From positions 1 through 63,740 of IMG/VR virus record IMGVR_UViG_3300032330_001642: a stretch of DNA of 63,740 nt; one strand, given 5' to 3'. Positions 9,914 to 35,921 of the stretch are shown here, one piece after another. The first letter of the stretch is position 1, and each line of letters starts with the position of its first letter. The notes beneath the pieces are model-generated. The model was not told the origin of the DNA. It searched no databases and was given only the letters and a program-made list of their open reading frames with translations. This DNA is from a virus (lineage: Duplodnaviria; Caudoviricetes). A program made the position numbers and the translations under genes.

Positions 9914-10771
9914 TTAGAATTTGTTCCCACAAGAAGAACAAAATTTATCGGAATCTTTTTTTCTTTTTTTTCCACAGTTAGTACAATATACTTTTAAGTC
10001 TTGTTTTTCAAAAACTTTTTGTGACACCGGAAGAATCTTCCATATTGATGTTGCACAAGTGTAATGATTAAAAGTTTTATCCACAGTTTTGAATGATTGG
10101 TCAGATGAACCACCTTTTTCAACTCTACCGGTTTCTACTGAATCCATCGATAACATATCCATAGTAACTTCACTACGAGAATTACCTTTAGATTTTTTTA
10201 ATCTTGATGTTGCACTTCGTAAGTTTGGTCCAGCAAAAGTGTTACTCATTGATGTGGTATTAAAATTAACACCCGCAGTATTAGATGTTGATGTAAATGA
10301 TACATTATTACTTAATGTTGTATGAGCGTAACCACCTGAAAAAGTATTGGTGTTATAAAGATGAACCGGACCACCAAATGACCCCCCAACATAAGTTATA
10401 GGGTTACTCCACACCGGTTGTTTATATTCATCAAAGAAGTCAATAACAACATCCCCATTTCCGGCGATGGCATCCAATACCTCATTTGATGTTCCGTCAA
10501 CCTCATAGGTCTCAAACTTAAATTTACGTGGGTCATCAAGATATCTCTCAAGAAATACTCTTTGTCCCGGTTTAAGAACAATTCCTCCTCCGGAGATATA
10601 ACTTCCGTCAAGTTTGATTTTTGCTAATACTGTGGTTGATGATGGGTTAAATAATTCTAGTTCGAATTCATCCCCATTGTTTAGATAGACAGTTTGTCCA
10701 AATTGTTTAAGACGTTTTCTGTCTTTTGTGATGTACGCAGAAGGCGTACCTGTTTTTGTTTGGTAATACAT
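9914..10771 (-). CDS. hypothetical protein with C-terminal zinc ribbon
   Basis: CTNCG...FCSSCG at the C-terminus. Confidence 0.75.
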   Translation of the reverse strand: MYYQTKTGTPSAYITKDRKRLKQFGQTVYLNNGDEFELELFNPSSTTVLAKIKLDGSYISGGGIVLKPGQRVFLERYLDDPRKFKFETYEVDGTSNEVLDAIAGNGDVVIDFFDEYKQPVWSNPITYVGGSFGGPVHLYNTNTFSGGYAHTTLSNNVSFTSTSNTAGVNFNTTSMSNTFAGPNLRSATSRLKKSKGNSRSEVTMDMLSMDSVETGRVEKGGSSDQSFKTVDKTFNHYTCATSIWKILPVSQKVFEKQDLKVYCTNCGKKRKKDSDKFCSSCGNKF

Positions 10772-10973
10772 AATTTCCTTATTTTATTTTTTATGTTTAT
10801 TGAACTTCACTTCGTTGGTATCATTTCCAACTCAAATGCCTCTTGGACACGTGAACCTCAGCAACAAGGTTTCATATATAACTATAAGGATGTTTTGTTT
10901 TTTATCAATAATAAAGTAAAAAAATTATAATAAAGTAGGTCACTTTATTGTGCAAAAACAACTTTATTATAAT

Positions 10974-11001
10974 AAAAAACCCCCAAGTTTCCTTGGAGGT
11001 T
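10974..11001 (-). terminator. terminator ending tRNA operon A
   Basis: AACCTCCAAG-GAAA-CTTGGGGGTT followed by a T tract on the minus strand. Confidence 0.7.
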
Positions 11002-11010
11002 ATATTGATA

Positions 11011-11120
11011 TACGTAGGGTTTACGGGTACCTACCCTGATTAATGACAATCAGACCGTCGTTCACTGTTTGTGAGAACCTAACGACAGATACTGTATTTG
11101 CTCACACGCAAGTATCTCCT
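11011..11120 (-). ncRNA. candidate structured RNA with kissing loops
   Basis: hairpins AGATACT/AGTATCT, GTCGTT/AACGAC and CTGATT/AATCAG; loop complementarity TGTGAG/CTCACA. Confidence 0.45.
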
Positions 11121-11122
11121 TG

Positions 11123-11194
11123 TGGTCCCGGGGAATCACGATATCCCAACCTTTTCGTTATGAGCGAACTGCTCCACCTTTGAGCTACGAGACC
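11123..11194 (-). tRNA. tRNA-CAT (Ile2 or Met), atypical T-loop
   Basis: GGTCTCG/CGGGACC acceptor; TTCG-CTCATAA-CGAA anticodon arm; T-loop ATCGTGA. Confidence 0.8.
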
Positions 11195-11233
11195 AATTAT
11201 GGGTTTTTAGTGTACCCATAAACACTTGAATAA

Positions 11234-11464
11234 CTATTGGTGGTGTTTGATATACCTACCAAATTTATCAACCCTCACAGAGAGTTTCTCCAATCTAAAG
11301 TTCCATTGTTTGAACTTTCCTAAGCCCGATTTCATTCGTGCTTGTTTAATCGCAGATTCTTCTGCCTTCTCACGTCCGTCTTCCGTAGTTTCTACGAAAA
11401 ACGTGGGAGCCTGAACACCGTATCTCACGGGAACTACTCTCCAAATTCTCAATTTCTGAGTCAT
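11234..11464 (-). CDS. small basic protein behind a TAG-uORF/hairpin switch
   Basis: 76-aa ORF whose start abuts a hairpin containing the uORF stop. Confidence 0.7.
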   Translation of the reverse strand: MTQKLRIWRVVPVRYGVQAPTFFVETTEDGREKAEESAIKQARMKSGLGKFKQWNFRLEKLSVRVDKFGRYIKHHQ

Positions 11465-11484
11465 AATACTTGAATAATCAAGTA

Positions 11485-11514
11485 CTACGTGGAGTTTGGT
11501 TGTTGGTTTTTCAT
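11485..11514 (-). promoter_or_regulatory. uORF MKNQQPNST-TAG with its stop in a 10-bp hairpin
   Basis: TAGTACTTGA-TTAT-TCAAGTATTA ends on the A of the downstream ATG. Confidence 0.65.
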
Positions 11515-11648
11515 ATTAGTAATATAATCAATTAAATATAAATATCAAACATATGGAGGTCTATCTCCTCAACATTTTCATTGGTACTGTTTTATGTGTG
11601 CCTCACGTGATTACTAATGTCACTGTCGCTTTAATGTTTGAAATTTTG

Positions 11649-11728
11649 TATCCCCGGTGGGAGTCGAACCCACACGCCGAAGCAACAAGTTTTAAGCCTG
11701 TCGTGTATACCAGTTTCACCACGGGGAT
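11649..11728 (-). tRNA. tRNA-Leu(TAA)
   Basis: cloverleaf; loop CTTAAAA; long variable arm. Confidence 0.92.
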
Positions 11729-11948
11729 GTGTTTCCCCCAATGAGATTAGTTTGGGGTAGATATTCTCGGTTTTTCCTATTGAAATACCCTACGCGTCTT
11801 ACCGCTTAAAAAGTCAACCATTACTAGGAGGTGAGTTGGTAGTCTCCCTATTAACCCTAAGACCCCCTCTGTAAAACCGTTTGAGGCGTCAGCTACATCT
11901 TTGTTTAAGAAACGATGCCAAATCTGTTGAGTATCTCTCACTCAATTG

Positions 11949-12041
11949 TAGTCAGGACAGGACTCGAACCTGTAAGTACAGTTATACAGAACTGTGCATC
12001 CCTGTATGGATATTGCGTCTAACCAATTCCGCCACCCGACT
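11949..12041 (-). ncRNA. tRNA-Leu-like scaffold with non-canonical anticodon arm
   Basis: AGTCGGG-TGGCGGAATTGGTTAGACGC...ACAGG-TTCGAGT-CCTGT-CCTGACT; loop ATACAG is not a 7-nt anticodon loop. Confidence 0.7.
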
Positions 12042-12267
12042 ATATAGGACACGGGTTCGGTTTCCCCATATGTGTCCATACTTTTAGTAGTTGTGTTATT
12101 TTAAGAGAAATAACCCGGTACCCACCGAAGAACCCGTATTTTTTGTTCCGCACAAAAATTTGTAAAAAGGCCGTATTGTCGTTTAGTCTATTTCAACCGT
12201 CCGAGTTCTACATTTTACATCCAAGAACCCATACCCTCATACGAAGAGAACGAAAGTGGATGACCTG

Positions 12268-12344
12268 ATGGTAAGGTGGGATTCGAACCCACATCCTTTC
12301 GGCCAACTAAGACCGAACGCTTTCACCATTTGAGCTTCTTACCA
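12268..12344 (-). ncRNA. tRNA-like RNA with enlarged anticodon loop
   Basis: TGGTAAG/CTTACCA acceptor, canonical T arm, TTCGG-TCTTAGTTGG-CCGAA (10-nt loop). Confidence 0.7.
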
Positions 12345-12574
12345 AACATTTTGGAAAAACTGATGGTTACGTTTACCATCTTTGACTTGAGTTTGTCTTT
12401 ATCATTTTTCCGTTTTTTTTGAGAGATTTCCTCTTGAAGTAATGTCAATCTCGTCCTAAACCACACCATCCTTTCTTTTAAGGCTAAGAAACTTCTAACT
12501 ACCTATTTGTCCCCACTGATTTTTCTTAACCACAAAAAACAGACTCACAAACTGAACTCACAAAAAACGACTCG

Positions 12575-12691
12575 TGGATAGAGTAGGATTCGAACCTACA
12601 ATAGTACCATACTTTTTCACCTGCCGGTTACTTCAAGGACTCGAACCTCATATTCCGATGCCTCGGACGCTTTACCATTTACCACCTACCC
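12575..12691 (-). ncRNA. tRNA-like RNA with a second, nested T arm
   Basis: GGGTAGG/TCTATCC acceptor; internal GAGG-TTCGAGT-CCTT plus terminal GTAGG-TTCGAAT-CCTAC; no anticodon loop. Confidence 0.6.
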
Positions 12692-12697
12692 ATTTTG

Positions 12698-12769
12698 AGC
12701 TTCCACGAGGAATCGAACCCCGTTATCTTGTGTACAAAACAAGCACATCACCATTTATGTTTTGGAAGC
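12698..12769 (-). tRNA. tRNA-Thr(TGT)
   Basis: cloverleaf; CTTGT-TTTGTAC-ACAAG. Confidence 0.88.
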
Positions 12770-12995
12770 CTGTCGCAGAGTATTTTTTTAAAGTAGAAGT
12801 CAACTCTGTCTCTTAAACTACTTATTGGTACTGGCACGGTTTCGGCCGAAACTCGGATTTGTACTTCATCCACAGGAATACCTGTCGCCAATTTCTTTAA
12901 CATCATCACTTCGGCCACATTGGGAGAACCGCAGTTCCCACGTTGTTTAAGGAGGTAGTTGGCGGTGTATCACACCGAGTTATGATAATGTATTG

Positions 12996-13069
12996 TACCC
13001 CAGGAGGGACTTGAACCCTCAAAAAACAATTTCTAAGACTGCCGTGTCTACCTATTCCACCACCGGGGC
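12996..13069 (-). tRNA. tRNA-Leu(TAG) lacking a long variable arm
   Basis: class II-type D arm; loop CTTAGAA; variable region is only a short T run. Confidence 0.8.
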
Positions 13070-13183
13070 TTTTTGGTGGGGCTCGACCCCACCTGTTTGA
13101 ATTACTTGCGATATGCTCTCACCCTTTTTCACCCAACTAGTATTTAGTGTGTGAGACCAAACTACCCTCATTCAACCCTTTTG

Positions 13184-13256
13184 TACCCCCAACTGGATTT
13201 GAACCAATATCGGACATCTTAGAAGGATGTGGCATTTCCATTTATGCTATGGAGGC
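13184..13256 (-). tRNA. tRNA-Arg(TCT)
   Basis: ACATC-CTTCTAA-GATGT. Confidence 0.9.
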
Positions 13257-13433
13257 AATTAAAATACTGCTGTGGAGCATCACCACAATCCACTACAAGG
13301 TTTTCCCCACTTTGGGCTGGCCGACCCAGGTTATGCCCTTATACCTTAACCTACGATTCTCTGCAGTTACGTAGCTCACTCAGGTGTGTGATAACAGGTG
13401 CTTATTTCATACCTATTTACGTCGTATTTTTTG

Positions 13434-13506
13434 AGACGATAGTCGGATTCGAACCGACATTATTCCACATTGGAAGTGTGGTGCCATACCTTTAGGCGAT
13501 ACCGTC
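13434..13506 (-). tRNA. tRNA-Gly(TCC), atypical acceptor stem
   Basis: CCACA-CTTCCAA-TGTGG; acceptor GACGGTA/TATCGTC. Confidence 0.8.
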
Positions 13507-14176
13507 ATTTTTTCTTTATAACTCGACCTAATCTCCATCCTTTAGGGATTAAATCACCTTTATAAATTTTTTTATTATCTGAACCATTAGTAATCCAACA
13601 AGTTCCGTATTGGGAATTTTTATTACCTTTTTGTTTTATTGAATTTTTCTTACCAATATTTTTTTTAGATTCTTCTTTATGTTTTTTACCTTTGAATGTT
13701 GAATGATTAAAACCGATTTCTTTTAATCGTTTCTTTATTTTTTCACTGTTTTCTTTTTGGTCATTTTCACTTAAAGAATTTTGATAATTTTTTGATATTA
13801 TTTTTCTAAAATCTTTACCGTATTTTTTTTCTAATATCTCATCAGTTATTCTTCTACCTTTTTTAACGGCTTTTAGATTAACAAAACCCCCTTGACCACC
13901 TTCTTTGAGATTCATACATAATTTATCTGTTAATAAAATTTTATTAACAATTTCACTCTCTCTAATTATCAGTTTTTCTCTTGTTGGTAAAAATTCTAAA
14001 ATTTCTTTTATATGATTTTCTTTCCCATACTTTCTAATAGAATATCTCAATCTTTTACCACTCCCTAAATAACCATCCTCTAAATTAGAGGTACTGTGCA
14101 TACCTATGTAATATCTTTTAGTTATATTACAAATTGTCTTGTAAATATAATGTATGTGAGGTTTTTTTCTTCCCAT
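13505..14176 (-). mobile_element. free-standing GIY-YIG homing endonuclease (Seg-like) with NUMOD3-like motif
   Basis: YIYKTICNITKRYYIGMH..YLGSG; FKGKKHKEESKKNIG; sits between two tRNA-Gly genes. Confidence 0.88.
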
Positions 14177-14233
14177 TTTGTCCTTTTATTATAAATATCT
14201 TAACCCATAGTAAAAGTACAAAAAAGTTCTCGG

Positions 14234-14305
14234 AGCGAGTAGAGAGAATCAAACTCTCGTCCTTAGGTTGGAAGCCTAATATAATAATCACTATACGATA
14301 CTCGC
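14234..14305 (-). tRNA. tRNA-Gly(TCC)
   Basis: GCGAGTA acceptor; TTAGG-CTTCCAA-CCTAA. Confidence 0.9.
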
Positions 14306-14391
14306 AGTTAAGATGAACTTCGGACTTGTGTACCGAATGAGACCCTTTAATTAAATCACTAACCCCGGGTGCGGTCTATTCATCTATTTTT

Positions 14392-14565
14392 TTATAACTT
14401 AGATTGGAGAATCCCCATCTCTTTTTCGATTCTTTTCTTATCAGAATCTGTTAATGGAACTTTTACGTCCCTTGTACCTTTTTGTGTTTTCACACCACTT
14501 TTCAGTTGGTGTTCTAACATAGACAATACTCTTGATTGTCTTGACCTTTGTTGAACTGTCGCCAT
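14392..14565 (-). CDS. small basic hypothetical protein (57 aa)
   Basis: MATVQQRSRQSRVLSMLEHQLKSG...; below ORF-track cutoff. Confidence 0.6.
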   Translation of the reverse strand: MATVQQRSRQSRVLSMLEHQLKSGVKTQKGTRDVKVPLTDSDKKRIEKEMGILQSKL

Positions 14566-14591
14566 ACGTTGGTTTTTAGATTAATAATTAG

Positions 14592-14664
14592 TAGCGGGAG
14601 GAGGACTCGAACCTCCGACCTTATGGTTATGAGCCACACGAGCTGCCAACTGCTCTATCCCACG
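14592..14664 (-). tRNA. tRNA-Met(CAT), initiator-like
   Basis: C1:T72 mismatch and fMet-like D arm; only two G-C pairs at the base of the anticodon stem. Confidence 0.85.
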
Positions 14665-14678
14665 ATGTTTATTCTTAG

Positions 14679-14748
14679 TAGCGTAGCGTGGACTCGAACC
14701 ACCCCCCAAGCTTATGAGACTTAGATGCAACCTTTACACTTTAACGCA
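14679..14748 (-). tRNA. degenerate tRNA-Met(CAT)
   Basis: loop CTCATAA and T arm present; weak acceptor pairing. Confidence 0.55.
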
Positions 14749-14758
14749 ATTTATTGTT

Positions 14759-14882
14759 TGTAATTAACATAGGCGGAACTCAAATCCTCTTACTCTTGTT
14801 TCCACGTTACCATATCATAAATTACCGAAGGATTATCCGTAACTTATTAGGCTCTCCCGCTAAGGACATTATGTTAATTACA
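14759..14882 (-). ncRNA. candidate structured RNA closed by a 13-bp stem
   Basis: TGTAATTAACATA/TATGTTAATTACA terminal inverted repeat. Confidence 0.5.
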
Positions 14883-14886
14883 TTTT

Positions 14887-14994
14887 GCTGATTAGTAAGG
14901 ATTTGAACCTTAATCCTCCTTCCCTTGTTGCCGTACATAATCTAGGGACTCGAACCCTAGCGGGGGATGGTGTGCACCATTACACTATAATCAA
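14887..14994 (-). ncRNA. tRNA-like RNA with a T-arm hairpin in place of the anticodon arm
   Basis: TTGATTA/TAATCAG acceptor, GTGT/ACAC D stem, internal CTAGGG-TTCGAGT-CCCTAG, terminal TAAGG-TTCAAAT-CCTTA. Confidence 0.6.
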
Positions 14995-15043
14995 TCGATG
15001 GTTTCGAACCCATCAGTCATAGGTTAATTACTCCTATGGTTTG

Positions 15044-15115
15044 CGGTCTATGAGAGAATCGAACTCTCATCTCTACCGTGACAGGGTAGCATCCTAGCCG
15101 TTGAACGAATAGACC
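15044..15115 (-). tRNA. tRNA-Asp(GTC)
   Basis: CTACC-CTGTCAC-GGTAG. Confidence 0.92.
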
Positions 15116-15244
15116 AAAATTACCTTTACATTTCAAAGGTTAATCAGGTTTAGTTGTGAACTTTCCTTTCAGTCGTTGTCTCATTTTTTTACGGGTCTTG
15201 TTATACGACAATTTCAACACATTGACCATACGTGTTGACAATCG

Positions 15245-15315
15245 TGGACACAGTGGGAATCGAACCCAAAACAATCTGATTGCAAATCAGTTGGACTGCC
15301 GTTGTCATCTGGCCC
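15245..15315 (-). tRNA. tRNA-Ala(TGC), irregular
   Basis: loop TTTGCAA; G3:U70 present; bulged acceptor. Confidence 0.7.
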
Positions 15316-15320
15316 ATACG

Positions 15321-15499
15321 ACACTTTATCAGATAGTGAGAAACTGGCTTTGTGTATTAAGGGAACACGATATGCTTAAAACCTCTTGTAGCCCCACCGG
15401 GAGTCGAACCCGACTTTTATGGATGAAAACCATATGTCCTAACCGATAGACGATAGGGCCAAATAACACTTTATCAGATAGTGAGAAACTGGCCTTGTG
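15321..15499. repeat. 28-bp identical repeat (15321-15348, 15466-15493) downstream of each tRNA-Glu
   Basis: ACACTTTATCAGATAGTGAGAAACTGGC occurs twice. Confidence 0.9.
15389..15460 (-). tRNA. tRNA-Glu(TTC)
   Basis: TATGG-TTTTCAT-CCATA. Confidence 0.92.
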
Positions 15500-15531
15500 C
15501 AATTAATGGGACACGTGGCTCATAACCATTG

Positions 15532-15603
15532 TAGCCCGTACGGGTTTCGAACCCGTGCCTCCTGATAGAAAGTCAGACGTGTTTACCTCTTCACTAACGG
15601 GCC
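15532..15603 (-). tRNA. tRNA-Glu(TTC)
   Basis: TCTGA-CTTTCTA-TCAGG. Confidence 0.88.
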
Positions 15604-15611
15604 ATTTTGTA

Positions 15612-15660
15612 TTACCAATATTTCAAATAACTTGTTTCTTTTTGATGGTACAAAGATAAT
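15612..15660 (-). promoter_or_regulatory. Bacteroidota-type promoter (TATCTTTG) plus boxA-like leader of tRNA operon A
   Basis: TAnnTTTG at 15651-15658; 25-mer AACAAGTTATTTGAAATATTGGTAA identical to 21672-21696. Confidence 0.7.
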
Positions 15661-15699
15661 ACTTTATTTCATTATACCAAACTTTTTTTAATCTTTTTT

Positions 15700-15852
15700 T
15701 TATCCTTCTCTATCTTCGATAGAAAACCCTGCACTATCGTATTCAGGTCCTTGGTCTTCTTCCGGAGTGACATTTACCAATCCGTATGTTACACCTAATA
15801 TGGGCGAATATTCCATCCCTAACTCTTCATTCATCGTTTTTTTGTCCGACAT
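15700..15852 (-). CDS. small acidic hypothetical protein (50 aa)
   Basis: MSDKKTMNEELGMEYSP...; TATCTTTG upstream. Confidence 0.5.
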   Translation of the reverse strand: MSDKKTMNEELGMEYSPILGVTYGLVNVTPEEDQGPEYDSAGFSIEDREG

Positions 15853-15915
15853 AATAATTACATTTTTAATTCGATACAAAGATAATACTTTTTTTTAATT
15901 CTCCAAATATAATGT

Positions 15916-15945
15916 AAAAAAAAATCCATCTCTTTTGGAGATGGA
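15916..15945 (-). terminator. attenuator terminator of leader A
   Basis: TCCATCTC-CAAAA-GAGATGGA followed by T9. Confidence 0.85.
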
Positions 15946-15980
15946 CCTTATCAGTTATTATTATGTTACTTAACAATACA

Positions 15981-16055
15981 TCATACCATCTCCGACCGAG
16001 TTGTATCTCTACCCTCCGCTCCTGTTAATAATAGTATTGTATTTAATGTTTGCAT
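15981..16055 (-). promoter_or_regulatory. leader peptide A (MQTLNTILLLTGAEGRDTTRSEMV)
   Basis: 24-aa ORF before the terminator; GGAGATGG is complementary to the terminator 5' arm; codons match operon A tRNAs. Confidence 0.8.
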
Positions 16056-16134
16056 TTTCTGTGTTATTGTAATTTTCTAATAAATATATACCTTTTTATA
16101 AAAGTGTCAAGTATTGGTAAAAAAAATTATAAAA

Positions 16135-16345
16135 AAAGTTTAACAACCCCGCCCTCGGGTCGTAGCGGGCAACTTGAGAATTACTTCTCGTGGGAATTCC
16201 GGAATTGGTTGTGTTCCTCACCGGCGTACCAGTCCTTATCTATCCTTTACCGTATTTATACGGTGCTACTGTTGGGAGGTCACCCCTATCAACACAACTA
16301 GTCCATTAGTTTTTAAGAGTATGGACACCCCGGTTGTTAAACTTT
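16135..16345 (-). ncRNA. candidate ~210-nt structured RNA
   Basis: 14-bp closing stem AAAGTTTAACAACC/GGTTGTTAAACTTT, GC-rich internal hairpins, no convincing ORF. Confidence 0.55.
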
Positions 16346-16353
16346 TTATTTTG

Positions 16354-16500
16354 TAAAAACAGACAGAATGATTTTCCGATATTTATCTTAGGGGCATCCT
16401 AGCAGTCACTCTACTTACCCTCGGCGGTCTCTTGGTTTGATTGACAATTCCAAACCTCACATCCATATTACCACTGATGTAAGTTATAGGTCTGTTTTTA
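16354..16500 (-). ncRNA. candidate structured RNA
   Basis: 11-bp closing stem TAAAAACAGAC/GTCTGTTTTTA. Confidence 0.45.
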
Positions 16501-16568
16501 TTTCTTCAGGAGAGACCCCCAAGGGATAACCATAACGGAATTACCCTTGACTCACTCTCCGTCTTCTG

Positions 16569-16637
16569 CACGCCATCAAAGAATCGAACTCTGTCCTATG
16601 GGTTTGGAATCCATTTGGCTACCTTAGCCTATGACGT
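16569..16637 (-). tRNA. tRNA-Trp(CCA)
   Basis: ATGGA-TTCCAAA-CCCAT; short D arm. Confidence 0.75.
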
Positions 16638-16645
16638 ATTTGTTG

Positions 16646-16715
16646 AGGTCTCGGTGAGAATCGAACTCACTCCGCTGATTTTGCAGACCAGCCGGCCGCC
16701 ACGACCATCAAGACC
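16646..16715 (-). tRNA. tRNA-Cys(GCA)
   Basis: loop CTGCAAA; U73. Confidence 0.85.
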
Positions 16716-16784
16716 ATTTAACCTACGACCCAAGGAACAGGAATTGTGTCCATAACATTCAATAAGCACTGTAGGTTTTCTATT

Positions 16785-17384
16785 TTAATCTAAACTACTT
16801 GGTAAATAAAGTAGTGTTGGATTTTTCTTTTGGATATCAACATCCGGGTAAAGTTTCTTAAACTCCAATACGTTGAACTTTCCGGTGATTATATGAAAAC
16901 CATTTTTTGTTGGAATCACTTTTTCAACTTTATTACCTACCGGTTGTATGTCATCTAAATCATTTAAGATTTTAATTAAAAACTTTTGGTCTGTAGTATC
17001 AACATCAACAATCCATCTTTTTTCCTGTGTTTTGATTTGACCCACAACCGAATCAAATAAACCCTTTTGGTTTTTTACACCATTTTTAATTCTCTCAGCT
17101 AACGACATCATCATTTCTAATGAAACATCCATATGGTTTTGTTTCTGAACGTGGATGTAAGCTCTTGCCTTGAACATCTCACATAATTGTTTGATTTCAT
17201 CGTATCTCTTATCAAGATGTTCTATACTATCAATACAATATGTTTTGATTGTTCTAACCGATTGGTGATTATCTCTCTCACCTTCAGGTTGGTCTTTCTT
17301 TCTCTTGAAAACGTATAACATATAGAAATCGTTTTTGTCCGAGAAATTCAGTAATTCTTTGATTTCTTTTATATTATCTATCAT
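16785..17384 (-). CDS. hypothetical protein, possible AEP primase-like fold
   Basis: WIVDVD and PTKNGFH motifs. Confidence 0.5.
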   Translation of the reverse strand: MIDNIKEIKELLNFSDKNDFYMLYVFKRKKDQPEGERDNHQSVRTIKTYCIDSIEHLDKRYDEIKQLCEMFKARAYIHVQKQNHMDVSLEMMMSLAERIKNGVKNQKGLFDSVVGQIKTQEKRWIVDVDTTDQKFLIKILNDLDDIQPVGNKVEKVIPTKNGFHIITGKFNVLEFKKLYPDVDIQKKNPTLLYLPSSLD

Positions 17385-17385
17385 C

Positions 17386-17628
17386 TTAATATCCTATTTC
17401 ATCTTTAATCTTCCACTGTTCTTCCGGGGTCAATCTTTCAATTCTCTCAACCGGAACAAATCCATCTAATCTTTGTTCTTTAACATCTTCAAAATGTTCT
17501 ATGGTATCCAAACGATACCCGAACTTATATCGGATGTATTGAAACTTCTCTCCGTCCCAATAAGCCATATAATTGTTTCTACAGAAACCCTTATACCACC
17601 CTTCTTTCATTTCATTTTTTGGTATCAT
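17386..17628 (-). CDS. hypothetical protein
   Basis: 80-aa ORF in an operon-like run. Confidence 0.65.
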   Translation of the reverse strand: MIPKNEMKEGWYKGFCRNNYMAYWDGEKFQYIRYKFGYRLDTIEHFEDVKEQRLDGFVPVERIERLTPEEQWKIKDEIGY

Positions 17629-17643
17629 TATTTCTAATATTTT

Positions 17644-18486
17644 TTAATTTTCAGTTTCTAATCGTTTAATAACATCTTTAATATTGATATATGATGTTAA
17701 AATTGTTGGTAACCCAAGAAGAGAGTTACAAAAATCAAACATATATCTGTACGTTGAGAATACACTTCCCACACTCACTTTATTGTACATTACGTAGTAT
17801 GTTAATAATGCCGTCACACTTCCGTATACAATCGCTTGAATCCAAATTGAGAACTTAGAATCTATCACTGATAACTTAATTGATAATTGTTGTCCTCTTC
17901 TTAATAAGTTATTAACTGATGATATTTTTCTAGTATTAATAATTTGAGTTTGTTCTTCAGATAAATCGTTATTCAAACTTGTAACCGCTGCTATCCTTGG
18001 TGAGTAATAAAAACTAACACCCAAGATTAAAACCGAGGTAATCATTAAGAATCCAACTATCGGTAAACTTACCATCGCCAAGAAGTAAATTGCTCCAACC
18101 AAACCAATTATTGTTTGTAATACAACCAACATATCTCTCTCAAAAAAATGAACGATATAATTCATTAAGGTCAATCTTCCGTTAATCTTTGTTGTCTCAA
18201 CACCGTTCTCAATTTGTTTGTGAGTTTCAATTGATGCAAATCGTCTATAAATCCCGGAGAATACTCTAACATCGTAAATTCTACTGATGTACCCGAAAAA
18301 CATAATGGCAACAAATGTTGAAACCAAATACCAAATGTACGAATAGTCTTTTGCTATCAAGTGGTCAATCGCATTACCCAAAACCTTTGGATAAATAACC
18401 ATCAAAATCGCATTCACCATAAACAACGAATATGAAAATACAATAGATTTCCAATTCTCCTTAAACATTACTTTTAACTTATTCAT
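17644..18486 (-). CDS. ABC transporter transmembrane-domain-like protein (no ATPase)
   Basis: about 6 TM helices; YPKVLGNAID, RIYDVRVFSGIY, SVGSVFS patterns. Confidence 0.7.
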   Translation of the reverse strand: MNKLKVMFKENWKSIVFSYSLFMVNAILMVIYPKVLGNAIDHLIAKDYSYIWYLVSTFVAIMFFGYISRIYDVRVFSGIYRRFASIETHKQIENGVETTKINGRLTLMNYIVHFFERDMLVVLQTIIGLVGAIYFLAMVSLPIVGFLMITSVLILGVSFYYSPRIAAVTSLNNDLSEEQTQIINTRKISSVNNLLRRGQQLSIKLSVIDSKFSIWIQAIVYGSVTALLTYYVMYNKVSVGSVFSTYRYMFDFCNSLLGLPTILTSYINIKDVIKRLETEN

Positions 18487-18542
18487 ATCTTTCCGTTTTA
18501 ATTTTGACAAAGATACAACTAAATTTTAATCTGCCAAATTTT

Positions 18543-19049
18543 TTAGAATAATAAATATGGTTCCCATTCTTCCGGGATGTAATGAACCTGTCTCATCAAC
18601 ATTAAATAATGTGGTCGTCTTGGTTGAGGGATTTCTTTTCCATACTCCTCTAACGTTAAATTTGACTTCTCACTATTACATTTTCTACAAGCGGTTACCA
18701 AGTTGTCCCACGCGTCTTTACCACCCTTAGATTGGGGTATTACGTGGTCTAATGTCAAAGTTTTACGATTGTCACACCCACAATAAACACAGGTATAACC
18801 ATCTCTTCTATAAACATTCTCTCTGTTCAAAGGAACTTTATGAATCGGTTGATTCACATATTTGTAAACCCTAATAATTGAAGGTTTTTTGATATCCAAT
18901 TCAGGATTGATTAACTTGAATGATTCCGGATGTTCGGCAATAACACTTGCATTACCTTTATAAGAAATTACAAAAGCCCTCTCAGTGTTTATGATAGACC
19001 TTGGCATAAAACTTGAATCCAAAACCAATGTTTTTCCGTACTTACTCAC
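18543..19049 (-). CDS. HNH endonuclease (McrA-like)
   Basis: RDGYTCVYCG, LTLDHVIP, WDNLVTACRKCN. Confidence 0.9.
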   Translation of the reverse strand: MSKYGKTLVLDSSFMPRSIINTERAFVISYKGNASVIAEHPESFKLINPELDIKKPSIIRVYKYVNQPIHKVPLNRENVYRRDGYTCVYCGCDNRKTLTLDHVIPQSKGGKDAWDNLVTACRKCNSEKSNLTLEEYGKEIPQPRRPHYLMLMRQVHYIPEEWEPYLLF

Positions 19050-19085
19050 GACTTTTGATTTTTAATTAAACATTCTTTTTATTTG

Positions 19086-19157
19086 TTCCCCCGCCGAGAG
19101 TCGAACTCGGCCCCATAGATTAAAAGTCTATTGCCTACACCAGTTTGCTACGAGGGA
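19086..19157 (-). tRNA. tRNA-Lys(TTT)
   Basis: ATAGA-CTTTTAA-TCTAT. Confidence 0.88.
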
Positions 19158-19240
19158 TTATTGAGCTCATTATACCTTAACATTGGGCTCAAAATCTCAC
19201 TTATTTGAGCTTAATAATTATGGTTTGTGAGCCACATTTG

Positions 19241-19312
19241 TCGTTACGGATGGATTCGAACCATCGACCACTGAAGTATCAGTTCAGCACTCTACCACTG
19301 AGTTACGTAACG
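19241..19312 (-). tRNA. tRNA-Ile(GAT)
   Basis: CTGAA-CTGATAC-TTCAG. Confidence 0.9.
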
Positions 19313-19318
19313 AAATTG

Positions 19319-19395
19319 TCGGGATAGCAGGATTCGAACCTGCGAGTTCTCCTGCTCCCAAAGCAGGCGGGGTAACCGGACTCCCCAATATCCCG
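19319..19395 (-). tRNA. tRNA-Pro(TGG)
   Basis: CCTGC-TTTGGGA-GCAGG. Confidence 0.9.
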
Positions 19396-19401
19396 AGTAA
19401 T

Positions 19402-19461
19402 TAACTACCATTTGACTCTTTTCGAACTTTGGAGGCTCGTATCATTCCTTAATGGTAGTTA
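19402..19461 (-). ncRNA. repeated small structured element, copy 1
   Basis: closing stem around core GAATGATACGAG...TCGAAARGAGTCA, shared with 20756-20813. Confidence 0.55.
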
Positions 19462-19466
19462 TTTTG

Positions 19467-19539
19467 TCTAAATGGCTGGACTCGAACCAGCGGTCTCTAC
19501 GGTCCAAGTGTAGCGGATTACCAACTTTCCCACATCTAG
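19467..19539 (-). tRNA. tRNA-Pro(TGG)
   Basis: CTACA-CTTGGAC-CGTAG. Confidence 0.85.
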
Positions 19540-19546
19540 AATTTAA

Positions 19547-19726
19547 TTATATTTTTAATTTTCCTGAACGATAATCTTCCACCATTTGTTTCAGTCTCTC
19601 GTCTCTTTTTTCCATCATCTTTCTGATTTTCTCAGTTCTTTCAGGACTTGGGTTAGAATCAATTGTATAAACCACCCCCATTTTATCTAATTCATTTAAG
19701 AATTCTTTTGTTTCAAATTTTTTCAT
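19547..19726 (-). CDS. small hypothetical protein
   Basis: ORF between tRNAs; start MKKFETKE. Confidence 0.6.
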   Translation of the reverse strand: MKKFETKEFLNELDKMGVVYTIDSNPSPERTEKIRKMMEKRDERLKQMVEDYRSGKLKI

Positions 19727-19740
19727 AACTTTATGTTTTG

Positions 19741-19827
19741 CGGAGAACAAGGGAATCGAACCCTCACCGGTTTTACCCGGAACATCTTAGCAGGATGCCA
19801 CTACGAACCAATATTAGACTATTCTCC
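19741..19827 (-). tRNA. tRNA-Ser(GCT)
   Basis: loop CTGCTAA; long variable arm; G73. Confidence 0.9.
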
Positions 19828-19834
19828 ATTTTTG

Positions 19835-19921
19835 CGCAGATGGTAGGAGTCGAACCCACTCGGAAACTTGCGTTTCATACATAAGATTTGGAGTCTTACC
19901 GGCTACCTCAGCCTCACCTGC
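19835..19921 (-). tRNA. tRNA-Trp(CCA) with a long variable arm
   Basis: TAAGA-CTCCAAA-TCTTA; variable hairpin GAAAC-GCAA-GTTTC. Confidence 0.75.
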
Positions 19922-20000
19922 ATAAATTAATAGGATATCGCTTAACCTATCCGTGACTTGGCCCTGTCACTTAACTCGTGTTACCGAGACGATTTTTTTG

Positions 20001-20072
20001 TGTCCCCAAGAGGATTCGAACCCCTATCTTCAAGTCCGTAGCCTGACGTTCTGTCCGTTGAACTATGGAGAC
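20001..20072 (-). tRNA. tRNA-Arg(ACG)
   Basis: TCAGG-CTACGGA-CTTGA. Confidence 0.9.
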
Positions 20073-20176
20073 AATTTGAGGTTGAGAACTCCTCTGTGTT
20101 AGTCTTTACTAGTTGTTGCAACAACCTTGTAGCCACTCTATTTTCCTTTCTCAAGGGAACAACACATTTTAATTTA

Positions 20177-20270
20177 AGTATTCACACAAGGTGTTAGTTT
20201 TATGGGAGTTCTACTGCAGATGTGCCCAAAAGTGACTTACCTAACACGGACTCCATTCCCCGTGAATACT
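20177..20270 (-). ncRNA. candidate structured RNA
   Basis: AGTATTCAC/GTGAATACT closing stem and inner GTGTTAG/CTAACAC stem. Confidence 0.45.
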
Positions 20271-20457
20271 ATTTCCACTGAGTTTTTCGGTTATACTTCC
20301 AAGTTTTATAACTTCTGTATTTAATTGACGAATGTCCTTTCTTGAAATTTAATCCCTCATCCCAATAGGGTGGAAATTCTTCTTTTAACCAAATTACTCT
20401 GTACTCTTTTGAACAAGTTGCCTTGTCCAACTTTTTTCTGTTTGTGTTTACACTCAT
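20269..20457 (-). CDS. small basic protein behind a TGA-uORF/hairpin switch
   Basis: 62-aa K/R/W-rich ORF with its start directly after a hairpin. Confidence 0.7.
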   Translation of the reverse strand: MSVNTNRKKLDKATCSKEYRVIWLKEEFPPYWDEGLNFKKGHSSIKYRSYKTWKYNRKTQWK

Positions 20458-20485
20458 AATCTCTGAGTCTGTTGTTTAGCAGACC

Positions 20486-20512
20486 TCAAAGATTGTCAAA
20501 TACCTTTTTCAT
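20486..20512 (-). promoter_or_regulatory. uORF MKKVFDNL-TGA with its stop in a hairpin
   Basis: AATCTTTGAGGTCTG-CTAAACAA-CAGACTCAGAGATT immediately followed by ATG. Confidence 0.65.
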
Positions 20513-20528
20513 AATATTTTTTTATTTG

Positions 20529-20601
20529 GGTGACTAAGGAGAATCGAACTCCCACCTTCAGAACCACAATCTAACATACTAACCGTTATACTATAGCCAC
20601 C
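20529..20601 (-). tRNA. tRNA-His(GTG)
   Basis: loop TTGTGGT; G-1:C73. Confidence 0.9.
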
Positions 20602-20677
20602 ATATATACCCCCTTCACCGGCTTAACGGACCGGCTGCCATATGGGAGTGGGGGTTTCCCGTTATTTCGGGACTCCG

Positions 20678-20749
20678 CGGACTTGGGGAATTTTGAAATC
20701 CCGACCTCGATGTTAACAGCATCTTGCTCTTCCTCTGAGCTACAAGTCC
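20678..20749 (-). tRNA. tRNA-Asn(GTT)
   Basis: GATG-CTGTTAA-CATC; T-loop TTCAAAA. Confidence 0.85.
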
Positions 20750-20755
20750 AATTTT

Positions 20756-20813
20756 GACTACTACCTGACTCCTTTCGAGCTTATGAAACTCGTATCATTC
20801 AATCTTAGTAGTC
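20756..20813 (-). ncRNA. repeated small structured element, copy 2
   Basis: GACTACTA/TAGTAGTC stem around the same core as 19402-19461. Confidence 0.55.
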
Positions 20814-20897
20814 CAAGGCTGTAGGAGCTCATCTTTACACTTAGGCTTTTTGTCTTCTCGATTCCGGAATCTTACGACCGTAGCGTCACCTTGTTTG

Positions 20898-20970
20898 TGG
20901 TTCCCCGGGGAATCGAACCCCATCCTTTAGATTTTCAGTCTAACGTACAGACCACTTATACCAGAGAACC
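20898..20970 (-). tRNA. tRNA-Phe(GAA)
   Basis: TTAGA-CTGAAAA-TCTAA. Confidence 0.9.
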
Positions 20971-20974
20971 AAAT

Positions 20975-21114
20975 AATGATAATGTTGAAGTACCCGTTTC
21001 GCTTCAATCTTGACTGCTTAATCATAGTTTTATGGTGCACCGGCAGAGGGTTATGAATTCTTGAACCTATCTTGGATTGTCGACATCCGAGAGATAGAGA
21101 AAACCATTATCATT
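20975..21114 (-). ncRNA. candidate structured RNA
   Basis: AATGATAATG/CATTATCATT closing stem with internal hairpins. Confidence 0.45.
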
Positions 21115-21116
21115 GG

Positions 21117-21197
21117 TGGAAAGTAGTGGACTCGAACCACTCCCGTAAGGACCTGATTTACAGTCAGGTTGCCGTATCCGAACGACTTTTACTTTCC
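21117..21197 (-). tRNA. tRNA-Tyr(GTA)
   Basis: CCTGA-CTGTAAA-TCAGG; variable arm; encoded CCA follows. Confidence 0.9.
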
Positions 21198-21202
21198 TTT
21201 TG

Positions 21203-21273
21203 TACCCCGAGATGGAATTGAACCACCACCATTTGTATGTAAGACAAATACGCTTCCATTACGCCATCGGGGC
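21203..21273 (-). tRNA. tRNA-Val(TAC)
   Basis: TTTGT-CTTACAT-ACAAA. Confidence 0.9.
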
Positions 21274-21279
21274 AAATTG

Positions 21280-21347
21280 TACCGAGAAATGGTAATGCTC
21301 CATTCTATAGTCGGATATGAGCCGTCTATGGTCCTTGACCTCTCGAT
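21280..21347 (-). tRNA. atypical tRNA-Met(CAT) with minimal D arm
   Basis: ATCGAGA/TCTCGGT acceptor; loop CTCATAT; D arm GGTC-AAG-GACC; T-loop AGCATTA. Confidence 0.6.
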
Positions 21348-21402
21348 GTTTTTGGTGGACATAGGCTCATCACCTACTCTTGGGTTTCCACCGAACCCTT
21401 CG

Positions 21403-21474
21403 TTACCCCTGAGAGAATCGAACTCCCACCGCGTGGACCAAAACCACGTGTACTAACCGTTATACGAAGGGGCA
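21403..21474 (-). tRNA. tRNA-Gln(TTG)
   Basis: CGTGG-TTTTGGT-CCACG; U1:A72. Confidence 0.9.
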
Positions 21475-21575
21475 ATAATATTTTAGTTAAAGAACGGTTA
21501 CCACAATTACGTTCGCCCCGGACACTACTCCGGACATTCTGTTTTGGGTGTGGATTAAACTATTTAACTAACCCG

Positions 21576-21663
21576 CGGAAGGAGTGGGACTCGAACCCAC
21601 ACGTGTGTTACCACCAACGGTTTTCAAGACCGCGACCCGTAGACCAACTTGGCTTACCCTTCC
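21576..21663 (-). tRNA. tRNA-Ser(TGA)
   Basis: GCGGT-CTTGAAA-ACCGT; long variable arm. Confidence 0.92.
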
Positions 21664-21671
21664 ATTTTTTC

Positions 21672-21722
21672 TTACCAATATTTCAAATAACTTGTTCCTT
21701 TATTTTGATGGGACAAAGGTAA
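21672..21722 (-). promoter_or_regulatory. Bacteroidota-type promoter (TACCTTTG) plus boxA-like leader of tRNA operon B
   Basis: TAnnTTTG at 21714-21721; 25-mer identical to 15612-15636. Confidence 0.7.
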
Positions 21723-21753
21723 TCCTTTTTTTTTAACTTTCAAACTTTTTTAC

Positions 21754-21789
21754 AAAAAAAAATCCTGAACTTTTTAGATTCAGGATTTT
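21754..21789 (-). terminator. attenuator terminator of leader B
   Basis: AAAATCCTGAA-TCTAAAAAG-TTCAGGATTTT followed by a T tract. Confidence 0.85.
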
Positions 21790-21811
21790 GGTATATGGTT
21801 ATGTTAACTTC

Positions 21812-21934
21812 TTATATAGTTGTCAAGTCATCCAATAAAACATCTGAATCTGTATGCGAGGTACGCGGATACGAACAATTACTAAATTGTTGTTTCCAAA
21901 TCACGACGTTCATATGTTTATTAGTGTTTCTCAT
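21812..21934 (-). promoter_or_regulatory. leader peptide B (MRNTNKHMNVVIWKQQFSNCSYPRTSHTDSDVLLDDLTTI)
   Basis: 40-aa ORF before the terminator; AGATTCAG is complementary to terminator CTGAATCT; codons match operon B tRNAs. Confidence 0.8.
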
Positions 21935-22028
21935 TTTTTCTAAATTTTGTGGTATCTCTACCTGTTGTTTCTTATAATTATATCAAACTTACGAAAAGTT
22001 TAATAAAAGTCAAATATTTTTTTTTATT

Positions 22029-22412
22029 TTAGCATTTTTTCAAACATAATCTAAAATATTTCTCACCGGGTCTATTAGAATAGAAGTAAAATACTACATT
22101 ATCATCATTTCTTTTCTCCATTATAATTCTAATACTTGATTCATCACCATCATCATCTATCAGGGTATATAAATAATTATATTGTCGGACAAACAATTGT
22201 TTTGATTTAACGTACATTTTATAATTACGTTTTTCAGTAATTATTGAAATTGTGTGTGATTCTTTATCCTCATAAAAAACTACTTCTCCGGGTATGTTTC
22301 TAATGTCCCACCCATCAGCCGTTCTCATATCAACAGTCTTAAACTCAAATCTTTTTTCTTGTGAGAATGAAGAAAAAGATAAGGTTAGTAACAATAAAAT
22401 TAAAAACCTCAT
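22029..22412 (-). CDS. secreted hypothetical protein
   Basis: Bacteroidota-type signal peptide ending FSQ. Confidence 0.65.
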   Translation of the reverse strand: MRFLILLLLTLSFSSFSQEKRFEFKTVDMRTADGWDIRNIPGEVVFYEDKESHTISIITEKRNYKMYVKSKQLFVRQYNYLYTLIDDDGDESSIRIIMEKRNDDNVVFYFYSNRPGEKYFRLCLKKC

Positions 22413-22675
22413 ACAAGTTTGTTTGCGATGTTAATAATAATACTTTCGTCCTCGTTGGATAATAGATGTTTTGAAAATCTAAGCTTTGTTAGTGATTCAT
22501 CCCATTCTAATTCCATTGCACTTGTACCTTCTTTAGTTGGTACTGCTTTACCATTGAATCGGGCCAAATGACCATCTTCAATTAAAGTTTCTATTAATTC
22601 ATCAATTTCACGACGACTACACTCGGAAATATATTCCCAAGGCTCAATATCGATTTCTGTACTAAAATCTGGCAT
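22409..22675 (-). CDS. hypothetical protein
   Basis: ORF. Confidence 0.65.
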   Translation of the reverse strand: MPDFSTEIDIEPWEYISECSRREIDELIETLIEDGHLARFNGKAVPTKEGTSAMELEWDESLTKLRFSKHLLSNEDESIIINIANKLV

Positions 22676-22677
22676 AA

Positions 22678-22941
22678 TTATAAATTTTCTAAATAGTTAA
22701 TAATTTTTGTAACTTGTTCTTTTGAATTCCATCCTGAAACATCATCACCATCCGGCATTGGCACAAACTTACCTAATGTCTTGTAGAGTGCGGCAACTTC
22801 AAATGAAGTTTTCCCATTTCCGTATAACCCGTTACCACCAACAACGGAAACTTCAATATCGTTTCCTAAATCTAATCTTGCTTGAACGGCACCTCTACCG
22901 ATAGCGTGTGGTTTGAATACTAAATCGTCAAATGTTTTCAT
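22678..22941 (-). CDS. hypothetical protein
   Basis: ORF; TATATTTG directly upstream. Confidence 0.65.
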   Translation of the reverse strand: MKTFDDLVFKPHAIGRGAVQARLDLGNDIEVSVVGGNGLYGNGKTSFEVAALYKTLGKFVPMPDGDDVSGWNSKEQVTKIINYLENL

Positions 22942-22981
22942 AGGGCAAATATATTACTTTTTTTTATAACACCAAAAAAAA

Positions 22982-23158
22982 TTAATGTTTTTTTACTAAA
23001 TATTTGTGACCCGAATCTGAATTAACCTCAAAAATCTCTTTCATTTTTAACGCTTCTTCTTCAGTTTCAAAAGTCATTATCTCAGAATAAGAATCAACTA
23101 AAATCACCGGTAATTCAACTCCGGTGTGGAATTTAACCATTTTTACTATTACCCACAT
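22982..23158 (-). CDS. small hypothetical protein (58 aa)
   Basis: MWVIVKMVKFHTGVELPVILVDSYSE...; TATTTAT upstream. Confidence 0.55.
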   Translation of the reverse strand: MWVIVKMVKFHTGVELPVILVDSYSEIMTFETEEEALKMKEIFEVNSDSGHKYLVKKH

Positions 23159-26162: not shown

Positions 26163-26223
26163 AATTATGTTTTTTTATAAATATCAATAATAATATAAAT
26201 ATCACTCTATATATAATAAAGTG

Positions 26224-31631: not shown

Positions 31632-31734
31632 ATCTATAAATACTTTAATAATCAAATAATCTTTTTTTTATAAAGTTTTTTATCATATTTTTGGTGGTAA
31701 ATAGATATTTGGTGGAAAGTAGATATTTATAATT

Positions 31735-35804: not shown

Positions 35805-35921
35805 AATTTTGTTTTTTATTTATAAATATCACCTCAAAACAAAATATACTATTTCCAAATTTTATTTATAACCTAAATTATTATATTTATTAAGATATTT
35901 ATAAAATAAAATATTACACTT

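Follow-up and report, generated by a model that had tools for sequence, protein, structure and literature searches.

A conserved mini-ORF and hairpin leader precedes a small basic protein gene in the tRNA arrays of large phages

IMGVR_UViG_3300032330_001642 is an IMG/VR record of 63,740 nucleotides (nt) from a virus (Duplodnaviria; Caudoviricetes), and we analysed it whole (positions 1 to 63,740; referred to as the window). Large phages have long tRNA arrays in which a few protein genes are embedded. We found that one such gene in the window, encoding a basic protein of 62 amino acids (aa), is preceded by a conserved leader that consists of an 8-codon upstream open reading frame (uORF) and a hairpin in which the uORF stop codon is buried. 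Our results are most consistent with a cis-acting translational leader in which reading of the uORF governs whether the start codon of the small protein is accessible, a view that we hold with moderate confidence.

The element is on the minus strand of the window, and its parts are described 5' to 3' on that strand. Directly upstream is a gene for tRNA-His (GTG) (20528..20600; ARAGORN; Rfam tRNA, 57.1 bits). Fifteen nt, all A or T and predicted to be unstructured (AAATAAAAAAATATT, 20513..20527), separate the 3' end of this tRNA from the uORF start. The uORF (20486..20512) reads ATG (20512-20510), AAA AAG GTA TTT GAC AAT CTT, TGA (20488-20486) and encodes MKKVFDNL. Codons 7 and 8 and the stop form the 5' arm of a hairpin of 14 base pairs (bp) with one bulged G and an 8-nt loop (20458..20494), so the stop codon in the window is base-paired. 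The 3' arm is the 14 nt up to 20458, and the main ATG follows at 20457 with no nucleotide between; the sequence directly after the stem is ATGAGTG. The 62-aa open reading frame (ORF) occupies 20269..20457. The next gene on the same strand, for tRNA-Arg (ACG) (20000..20072; ARAGORN and Rfam), begins 196 nt past the ORF stop. An initial annotation of this DNA, made from its letters, had described MKKVFDNL ending in CTT TGA, a hairpin of ~14 bp directly before the ATG of a 62-aa basic protein, and a +1 frame that hits TAA after three codons so that no fusion is made. We found each of these features as described; the +1 frame past CTT reads GAG GTC TGC TAA.

The hairpin is more stable than shuffled versions of its context. 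The 88 nt around it folded at -18.9 kcal/mol, whereas shuffles averaged -8.7 (z -4.65); none of the 200 shuffles was as stable. When covariance model R1 was run on the whole window with filters off, it found the element alone (E 9e-14), the next match having an E value of 0.24. A scan of positions 10000-23000 with Rfam 15 (E up to 1) returned only tRNAs and chance-level matches, with nothing in 20073-20527, and a scan of the region for tandem repeats found none. We considered a transcription terminator or attenuator and rejected it because the stem has no U-tract. Neither a terminator-like nor a promoter-like site was found at the element on the minus strand (20458-20494), and the small-protein gene is therefore probably co-transcribed with the tRNAs.

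We found that the leader is conserved in relatives. In IMG/VR, 121 contigs had a relative of the gene, and 80 loci were taken for comparison. Five of these (L005, L042, L074, L077 and L079) were left out because their 5' end was cut or their start was unclear, which gave 75 loci, or 76 sources with the window. The initial annotation had made its proposal depend on conservation of the uORF; a uORF starting ATGAA is present upstream of the gene in 75 of the 76 sources. Among 51 unique leaders, its length is 8 codons in 47, 7 codons in two, 11 codons in one and 12 codons in one.

The uORF peptide is also conserved, with the consensus M-K-K-x-(F/L)-D-x-(L/Y/H). In the 47 leaders with 8 codons, the second residue is always Lys and the sixth is Asp in 45; Asp6 is never replaced by Glu. 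Codons vary synonymously at K3 (AAA/AAG), F5 (TTT/TTC) and D6 (GAC in 30, GAT in 29), which points to a translated frame. The eight codons most frequent at position 4, which account for 52 of 59 leaders, all have A in the third position, and this fits an A-rich initiation region. Two variant leaders (L032, ~2939-3003; L083, 2943-3003) precede family members with a 12-codon uORF, MNRAFKYSSGCR or MNRRAKYEYGCC, and a TAG within the hairpin; L083 has a further ATGAACCGCAGA start after the stop of the family gene.

What is conserved in the hairpin is the pairing and the placement of the stop codon and the ATG; the sequences of loop and stem are not. At least one nucleotide of the uORF stop is paired within the 5' arm in all 51 unique leaders, and the first nucleotide is paired in 46. 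Pairs at the second stop position are A-T (30) and G-C (12), and at the third G-C (28), A-T (13) and G-T (2). The stop and its partner covary, with TAG opposite CTA and TGA opposite TCA. The 3' arm ends between -3 and +6 nt relative to the main ATG. Sixteen long-stem leaders aligned with MAFFT had 83% of cells paired, compared to 24-48% when the partner was slid, and five pairs changed on both sides. A covariance-model alignment of 24 distinct leaders, a method that leans towards the structure, had 87% of cells paired (32-48% slid), and 12 of 14 pairs changed on both sides.

We found that conservation does not extend to the identity of the stop. The 51 unique leaders end in TAG (30), TGA (15) or TAA (6), and their last sense codon is CAT, CTT, TAT or TTG. 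The distance from stop to ATG is 13-31 nt, and frame offsets of 0, 1 and 2 between uORF and ORF all occur. We rejected a fusion of uORF and ORF by frameshift, hop or read-through because of these varying offsets. The same data bear on the idea, raised in the initial annotation by analogy with prfB, that CTT TGA senses the supply of release factor 2 (RF2) and gates the downstream gene. CTT TGA is indeed present in the window and its closest relatives. However, neither the last sense codon nor the stop is constant across the leaders, and no G-rich or Shine-Dalgarno-like element that might act as a stimulator lies upstream of CTT TGA in the window, where the sequence is TTTGACAAT. Given the lack of conservation of CTT TGA, the closed +1 frame and the varying offsets, we rejected a prfB-like RF2 sensor, to which we attach next to no probability. 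The comparative data exclude RF2 specificity and in this correct the first reading of the locus.

The uORF start is predicted to be open and the main start to be masked. In the window, the predicted unpaired probability over -12 to +3 is 0.56 at the uORF AUG and 0.19 at the main AUG. Over 50 leaders the means are 0.67 and 0.31, respectively, and in 46 of the 50 the uORF start is more open than the main start. Starts elsewhere in the window make little use of Shine-Dalgarno sequences. Of 35 ATG-start ORFs, drawn from the 50 window ORFs of at least 150 aa, three have a Shine-Dalgarno-like motif, and the regions upstream of the 35 are A-rich at -3, -6 and -10 to -14. We take this to be the pattern of Shine-Dalgarno-independent initiation of the Bacteroidota type.

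The leader is specific to a gene family and to tRNA arrays. In 1.05 Mb of sequence comprising the window and related loci, searched on both strands, a strict uORF pattern occurred 73 times: 65 times before a family gene, twice before a frameshifted copy of it and six times before adjoining small basic ORFs. It was found nowhere else in that 1.05 Mb. Across all of IMG/VR, a degenerate pattern matched 108 stretches. In the 80 loci listed from these there are 81 matches, of which 56 precede proteins with a C-terminus of the W-K-x-x-R-K-T-Q-W type; among the matches listed, 54 of these 56 have tRNAs within 1.5 kb. Another 10 of the listed matches precede other ORFs, four of them members of an unrelated 76-aa basic family near tRNAs, and 15 look like chance, 10 having no downstream ORF within reach of an ATG and five lacking a true 8-codon frame. 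Genes for tRNAs are present in 72 of the 75 loci, and all but one of these tRNAs are on the strand of the family gene. This makes the leader a module that goes with small basic proteins in the tRNA arrays of phages.

Small basic ORFs outside the family also carry the leader. The unrelated 76-aa family (L100, L111, L150, L152) has the leader MKKKFDMY-TAG with a hairpin, tRNAs within 1.5 kb, and the N-terminus M-K-T-K-K-R-W-S-W-T-E-A-Q-R-R-R-H (the L100 copy begins M-R-A-K-K-R). In some relatives a second small basic ORF of 48-98 aa adjoins the family gene, after it in five loci (L056, 3219-3569; L051 and L052, from ~3189; L059, from 2242; L060, from 2220) and before it in L077 (2796-2996). These ORFs have leader copies of their own (MKKETDGL, MKKRFDAL, MKKKFDLL, MKKLLDAL), and several contain Y-P-S-W-K-L-x-S-K-N-K-K-Q-W-M. 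Pfam had no match for the adjoining ORFs. Comparison of the family profile with the 98-aa and 48-aa ORFs by hhalign gave E values of 0.086 and 0.32, respectively; they share only the C-terminal motif, and homology is not established. In two near-identical contigs (L022, 1734-1920; L023, 3001-3187) an intact leader stands before a family gene that seems frameshifted, seen as a 187-nt match with no open frame, which is either a pseudogene or an assembly error.

These distributions also bear on a different role for the hairpin, as a processing or stability element of the tRNA precursor transcript or as a protein operator, with the uORF secondary. Such a hairpin could be a barrier to exonucleases or an autoregulatory site for the basic protein, and the uORF might load protective ribosomes. 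The module begins 15 nt past a tRNA 3' end in the window, and 30 of the 75 loci have the end of a same-strand tRNA no more than 120 nt upstream of the main ATG. Like RNA-binding peptides, the product is basic with many W, K and R residues, and its best row among Protein Data Bank (PDB) sequence profiles was the double-stranded-RNA-binding region of RNase III (E 0.11). We treated this row as chance; it is not significant and has no support from the fold. The lack of sequence conservation in loop and stem argues against a sequence-specific operator, and the presence of the leader before the 76-aa family and the conservation of the exact uORF frame and length also speak against this role. We consider it quite unlikely.

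Based on these results we suggest that translation of the uORF unmasks the main start. Phages of this kind use little Shine-Dalgarno pairing, and ribosomes would start readily at the A-rich, unstructured uORF start. The main AUG would be masked, since the 3' arm of the hairpin is made of the 13-31 nt that precede it. The 5' arm comprises the uORF stop and the two sense codons ahead of it, and a ribosome reaching the end of the uORF would therefore have to melt the hairpin. It would terminate a few nucleotides from the freed AUG, and then either reinitiate there or leave time for another ribosome to load before the hairpin refolds. Expression of the small protein would in this way be tied to ongoing translation of the uORF and to the dwell time of ribosomes at its end, and would be independent of which release factor reads the stop.

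Several observations weigh against this reading. In the window the main ATG is itself unpaired, the pairing being limited to nucleotides before it. In the class with long hairpins the stop is 22-31 nt from the ATG, which is long for classical bacterial reinitiation. One locus, L061, has a hairpin without such a uORF, and the 12-codon uORFs of L032 and L083 encode a different peptide. Plain coupling leaves the fixed length of 8 codons, the near-invariant Asp6 and the rarity of TAA unaccounted for. TAA ends 6 of 51 uORFs compared to 49 of the 57 window ORFs of at least 120 aa (TGA and TAG end four each). Stem stability may explain part of this bias, since 40 of 51 leaders pair the G of their TAG or TGA stop with C, and TAA is restricted to leaders with long stems. 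Metatranscriptome contigs from four runs were placed on 19000-22000; pieces from run X16 cover 20165-20426 and 20384-20520, and a piece from run X19 covers 20273-20493, with 12-36 differences per piece. These RNA-library contigs, which belong to relatives, show presence of the leader only, and not ends, strand or level.

A second leader in the window supports unmasking by uORF translation. A looser scan found it at 11514-11462, on the minus strand within the same tRNA array; its sequence is unrelated to that of the first leader and its architecture is the same. Its uORF encodes MKNQQPNST (ATG 11514, TAG 11487-11485), and a 12-bp hairpin within 11514-11462 includes the main ATG at 11464, the start of a 76-aa ORF of no known family (11464 to 11234). 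In relatives the peptide, the stem and the spacing (13-25 nt) vary, although TAG is the uORF stop in every one of the 69 related loci that could be analysed (39 unique). This is probably the TAG switch that the initial annotation had paired with the TGA of the first leader as sensors of release factor 1 and RF2. That pairing fails, since the leader that would be the other half is not TGA-specific.

A promoter-like GATATTTATA is present upstream of the second leader (11546-11537, minus strand). This motif occurs seven times in the window compared to 0.58 expected, and 0 of 100 shuffles reach seven. Its sites are 11537-11546, 14190-14199, 26176-26203, 31722-31731, 35821-35830 and 35894-35903, and many ATG starts have a close variant 12-20 nt upstream. 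We regard the motif as a candidate for a phage promoter or for an element of the 5' untranslated region.

Our results might also indicate that the first leader is a regulated stalling sensor, acting by translation attenuation. The leader peptide or the Asp codon would pause the ribosome at codon 6 or at the stop, and only under a particular condition, for example when charged or intact tRNA runs short, when termination is slow or when a small molecule is present, would the hairpin stay open for the time needed to turn on the small protein. A ribosome paused at the Asp codon would, given the ribosome footprint, begin melting the hairpin base there, and that base begins 0-2 nt past this codon. 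The retention of Asp6 through both GAT and GAC, and never Glu, fits such a sensor. Asp6 is also kept in leaders of the adjoining second family (MKKRFDAL, MKKETDGL and MKKKFDLL), the uORFs prefer stops that only one release factor reads over TAA, and the gene lies among tRNAs in a window that also encodes an Rnl1-type RNA ligase (2679-3704; PHROG 562, E 2e-67). The chloramphenicol-dependent arrest motif of the CmlA leader, given as KNAD in PMC10192921, likewise ends in Asp. However, the 12-codon variants and the second leader share the architecture but have quite different peptides, and stem stability alone could explain the stop bias. In leaders with spacers of 13-16 nt, moreover, a ribosome at the stop would sterically cover the main AUG. 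A sensor of this type is possible, though we are doubtful of it.

A more speculative extension, which we think unlikely, is that the leader acts as a sentinel that reports how the translation machinery fares in infected cells. Its invariant Asp codon stands two codons before the hairpin, among codons often read by His, Asn, Asp or Tyr tRNAs, and its stop is mostly one that a single release factor reads, TAG or TGA in place of the TAA that is usual in the genome. If a tRNA species were depleted or cleaved, or if termination were slow, these features together might make ribosomes linger and the hairpin open, so that a family of small RNA-binding proteins rich in W, K and R would be made; these would then act on tRNAs or ribosomes. 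If this were true, the two leaders of one tRNA array, one of them strictly TAG, would be separate sensors.

The small protein belongs to an unannotated family that is almost confined to phage tRNA arrays. The window member contains 12 K, 4 R, 4 W and 5 Y (isoelectric point 9.96). The hallmark of the family is Y-P-x-Y-W-D-E-G followed by a C-terminal Y-R-S-Y-K-T-W-K-Y-N-R-K-T-Q-W-K. An N-terminal part, M-S-x-N-x-N-R ... Y, is conserved as well, and the C-terminus most of all: the last 15 residues are the most conserved part, with W53, K54, R57, T59 and K62 invariant in alignment A1. A word-indexed search found 45 relatives at 40-96% identity, none of them named. An exhaustive profile search (E up to 0.001) found 158 clusters at 50% identity, 31-123 aa in length, with no domain fusions. 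The median pairwise ratio of nonsynonymous to synonymous substitution rates (dN/dS) was 0.2 (106 pairs, 16 genes), indicating purifying selection. Among 185,579 species genomes the family is encoded at two loci, one of them on a 375-kb contig in the bin of a Bacteroidota metagenome-assembled genome. This selection, together with a conserved, covarying and family-specific leader, supports the initial proposal of a uORF and hairpin switch before a real small protein.

Searches for known relatives of the protein were negative. There was no Pfam family for it at E up to 10 or for 34 members of A1 at E up to 1, no family in a PHROGs scan, no tblastn match in 50,697 GenBank phage records at E up to 10, and no usable match in the ESM Atlas. 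Rows from PDB sequence profiles were non-significant and listed no rescue factor. AlphaFold2 models had mean confidence scores (pLDDT) of 67 from 34 sequences and 81 from 141 sequences; Foldseek found 0 matches to the PDB for either model, and the best Z in a wide VIA-align search was 2.6, so the fold was not assigned.

These results bear on the suggestion in the initial annotation that the product is an alternative ribosome rescue factor of the ArfA or BrfA type. Size and charge, and a genomic setting related to translation, are what speak for it. No match in sequence or fold connects the protein to such factors, and the conserved segment runs up to the stop; a conserved extreme C-terminus is not what one would expect of a factor translated from a truncated message. 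The regulatory hairpin lies ahead of the ORF and not within its 3' end, and the family is nearly absent from cellular genomes. We did not retain the suggestion and regard it as very improbable. We think it probable that the small-protein family has to do with tRNA or ribosome function during infection.

The window is a fragment of a jumbo phage. The IMG/VR completeness estimate is 22%, which corresponds to a genome of roughly 290 kb. ARAGORN found 29 tRNA genes at 11.1-21.7 kb, every one on the minus strand, and the leader module lies within this array. Two tRNA-like genes on the same strand are odd: one (12267-12344) has an 8-nt anticodon loop and a 4-base ARAGORN anticodon (tagt), and the other (11948-12041), of 94 nt, was given a 2-base call (ac). 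Both are above the Rfam tRNA threshold (51.3 and 36 bits, respectively). The array also contains genes for an HNH endonuclease (18543-19049) and an ABC_membrane_3-like protein (17644-18510). A DnaK/Hsp70 homologue (41287-43152) is nearest to those of uncultured huge phages of 484-735 kb, and Prevotella phages account for 15 of the 53 records that match it. Within the window, which amounts to an estimated 22% of the genome, we found no member of the S21 or TGT families. The window has a GC content of 33%, and freshwater metagenomes contain near-identical DNA.

No Rfam, Pfam or PHROGs family covers the element or the protein, and we found no description of the element in the literature searched, supplements being outside its coverage. 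Control of translation by a leader ORF and hairpin is of a known kind; what is new is this form of it, attached to a new small-protein family. Genes for a family of tiny basic proteins, which is almost confined to large-phage tRNA arrays, have a dedicated and strongly conserved leader that combines a fixed-length mini-ORF and its conserved peptide with a stop buried in the hairpin and a masked start. The leader would provide a compact, testable case of uORF-driven control in a Shine-Dalgarno-independent bacterial system.

Among known systems, the gene prfB, encoding RF2, has an autoregulatory +1 frameshift site. The window shares its CTT TGA codon pair. Unlike prfB, the leader has no Shine-Dalgarno-like stimulator, an open +1 frame and a fusion product are lacking, and TGA is not conserved. 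The alternative rescue factors ArfA and BrfA are small and basic, and their mRNAs have a regulatory hairpin within the 3' end of the ORF. A small basic protein and a regulatory hairpin on the mRNA are common to both cases; here, in contrast, the hairpin is 5' of the ORF, the conserved core is C-terminal, the family is almost phage-only, and sequence and fold are not similar.

In mammalian S-adenosylmethionine decarboxylase mRNA, a hexapeptide uORF acts at termination and has an essential Asp three residues before the stop. The leader peptide described here is likewise very short and sequence-specific, with Asp three residues before the stop. The mammalian system, however, operates in eukaryotic scanning and without a hairpin, and the likeness is only a lead. 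The lysozyme gene of phage T4 and the gene for I-TevI have starts masked by hairpins in long early transcripts. These too are phage start regions sequestered by a hairpin in a long read-through transcript. T4 unmasks them with a later promoter that starts inside the hairpin, whereas here the conserved uORF is the likely opener.

The leaders of the cat, cmlA and erm resistance genes work by translation attenuation, in which a ribosome on the leader opens a hairpin that masks the next start. As in those systems, the 3' part of a short leader ORF (<20 codons) forms the 5' arm of the start-masking hairpin, and as in the cmlA leader there is an Asp near the critical position. The present leader differs in having no known antibiotic inducer, in preceding no resistance gene but one for a small basic phage protein in a tRNA array, in having no Shine-Dalgarno sequence to mask, and in keeping the stop codon always inside the stem; a stall is here hypothetical. 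In termination-reinitiation coupling in bacteria and RNA phages (PMC6728339, PMC9955659 and PMC2268962), a downstream start without a ribosome-binding signal of its own depends on a ribosome that comes directly from translating the frame before it. The main start here, masked and without a Shine-Dalgarno-like motif, would depend on such a ribosome in the same way. However, the stop and start described here do not overlap but are 13-31 nt apart and joined by a conserved hairpin, and a mini-ORF of 8 codons with a conserved peptide serves as the dedicated upstream frame.

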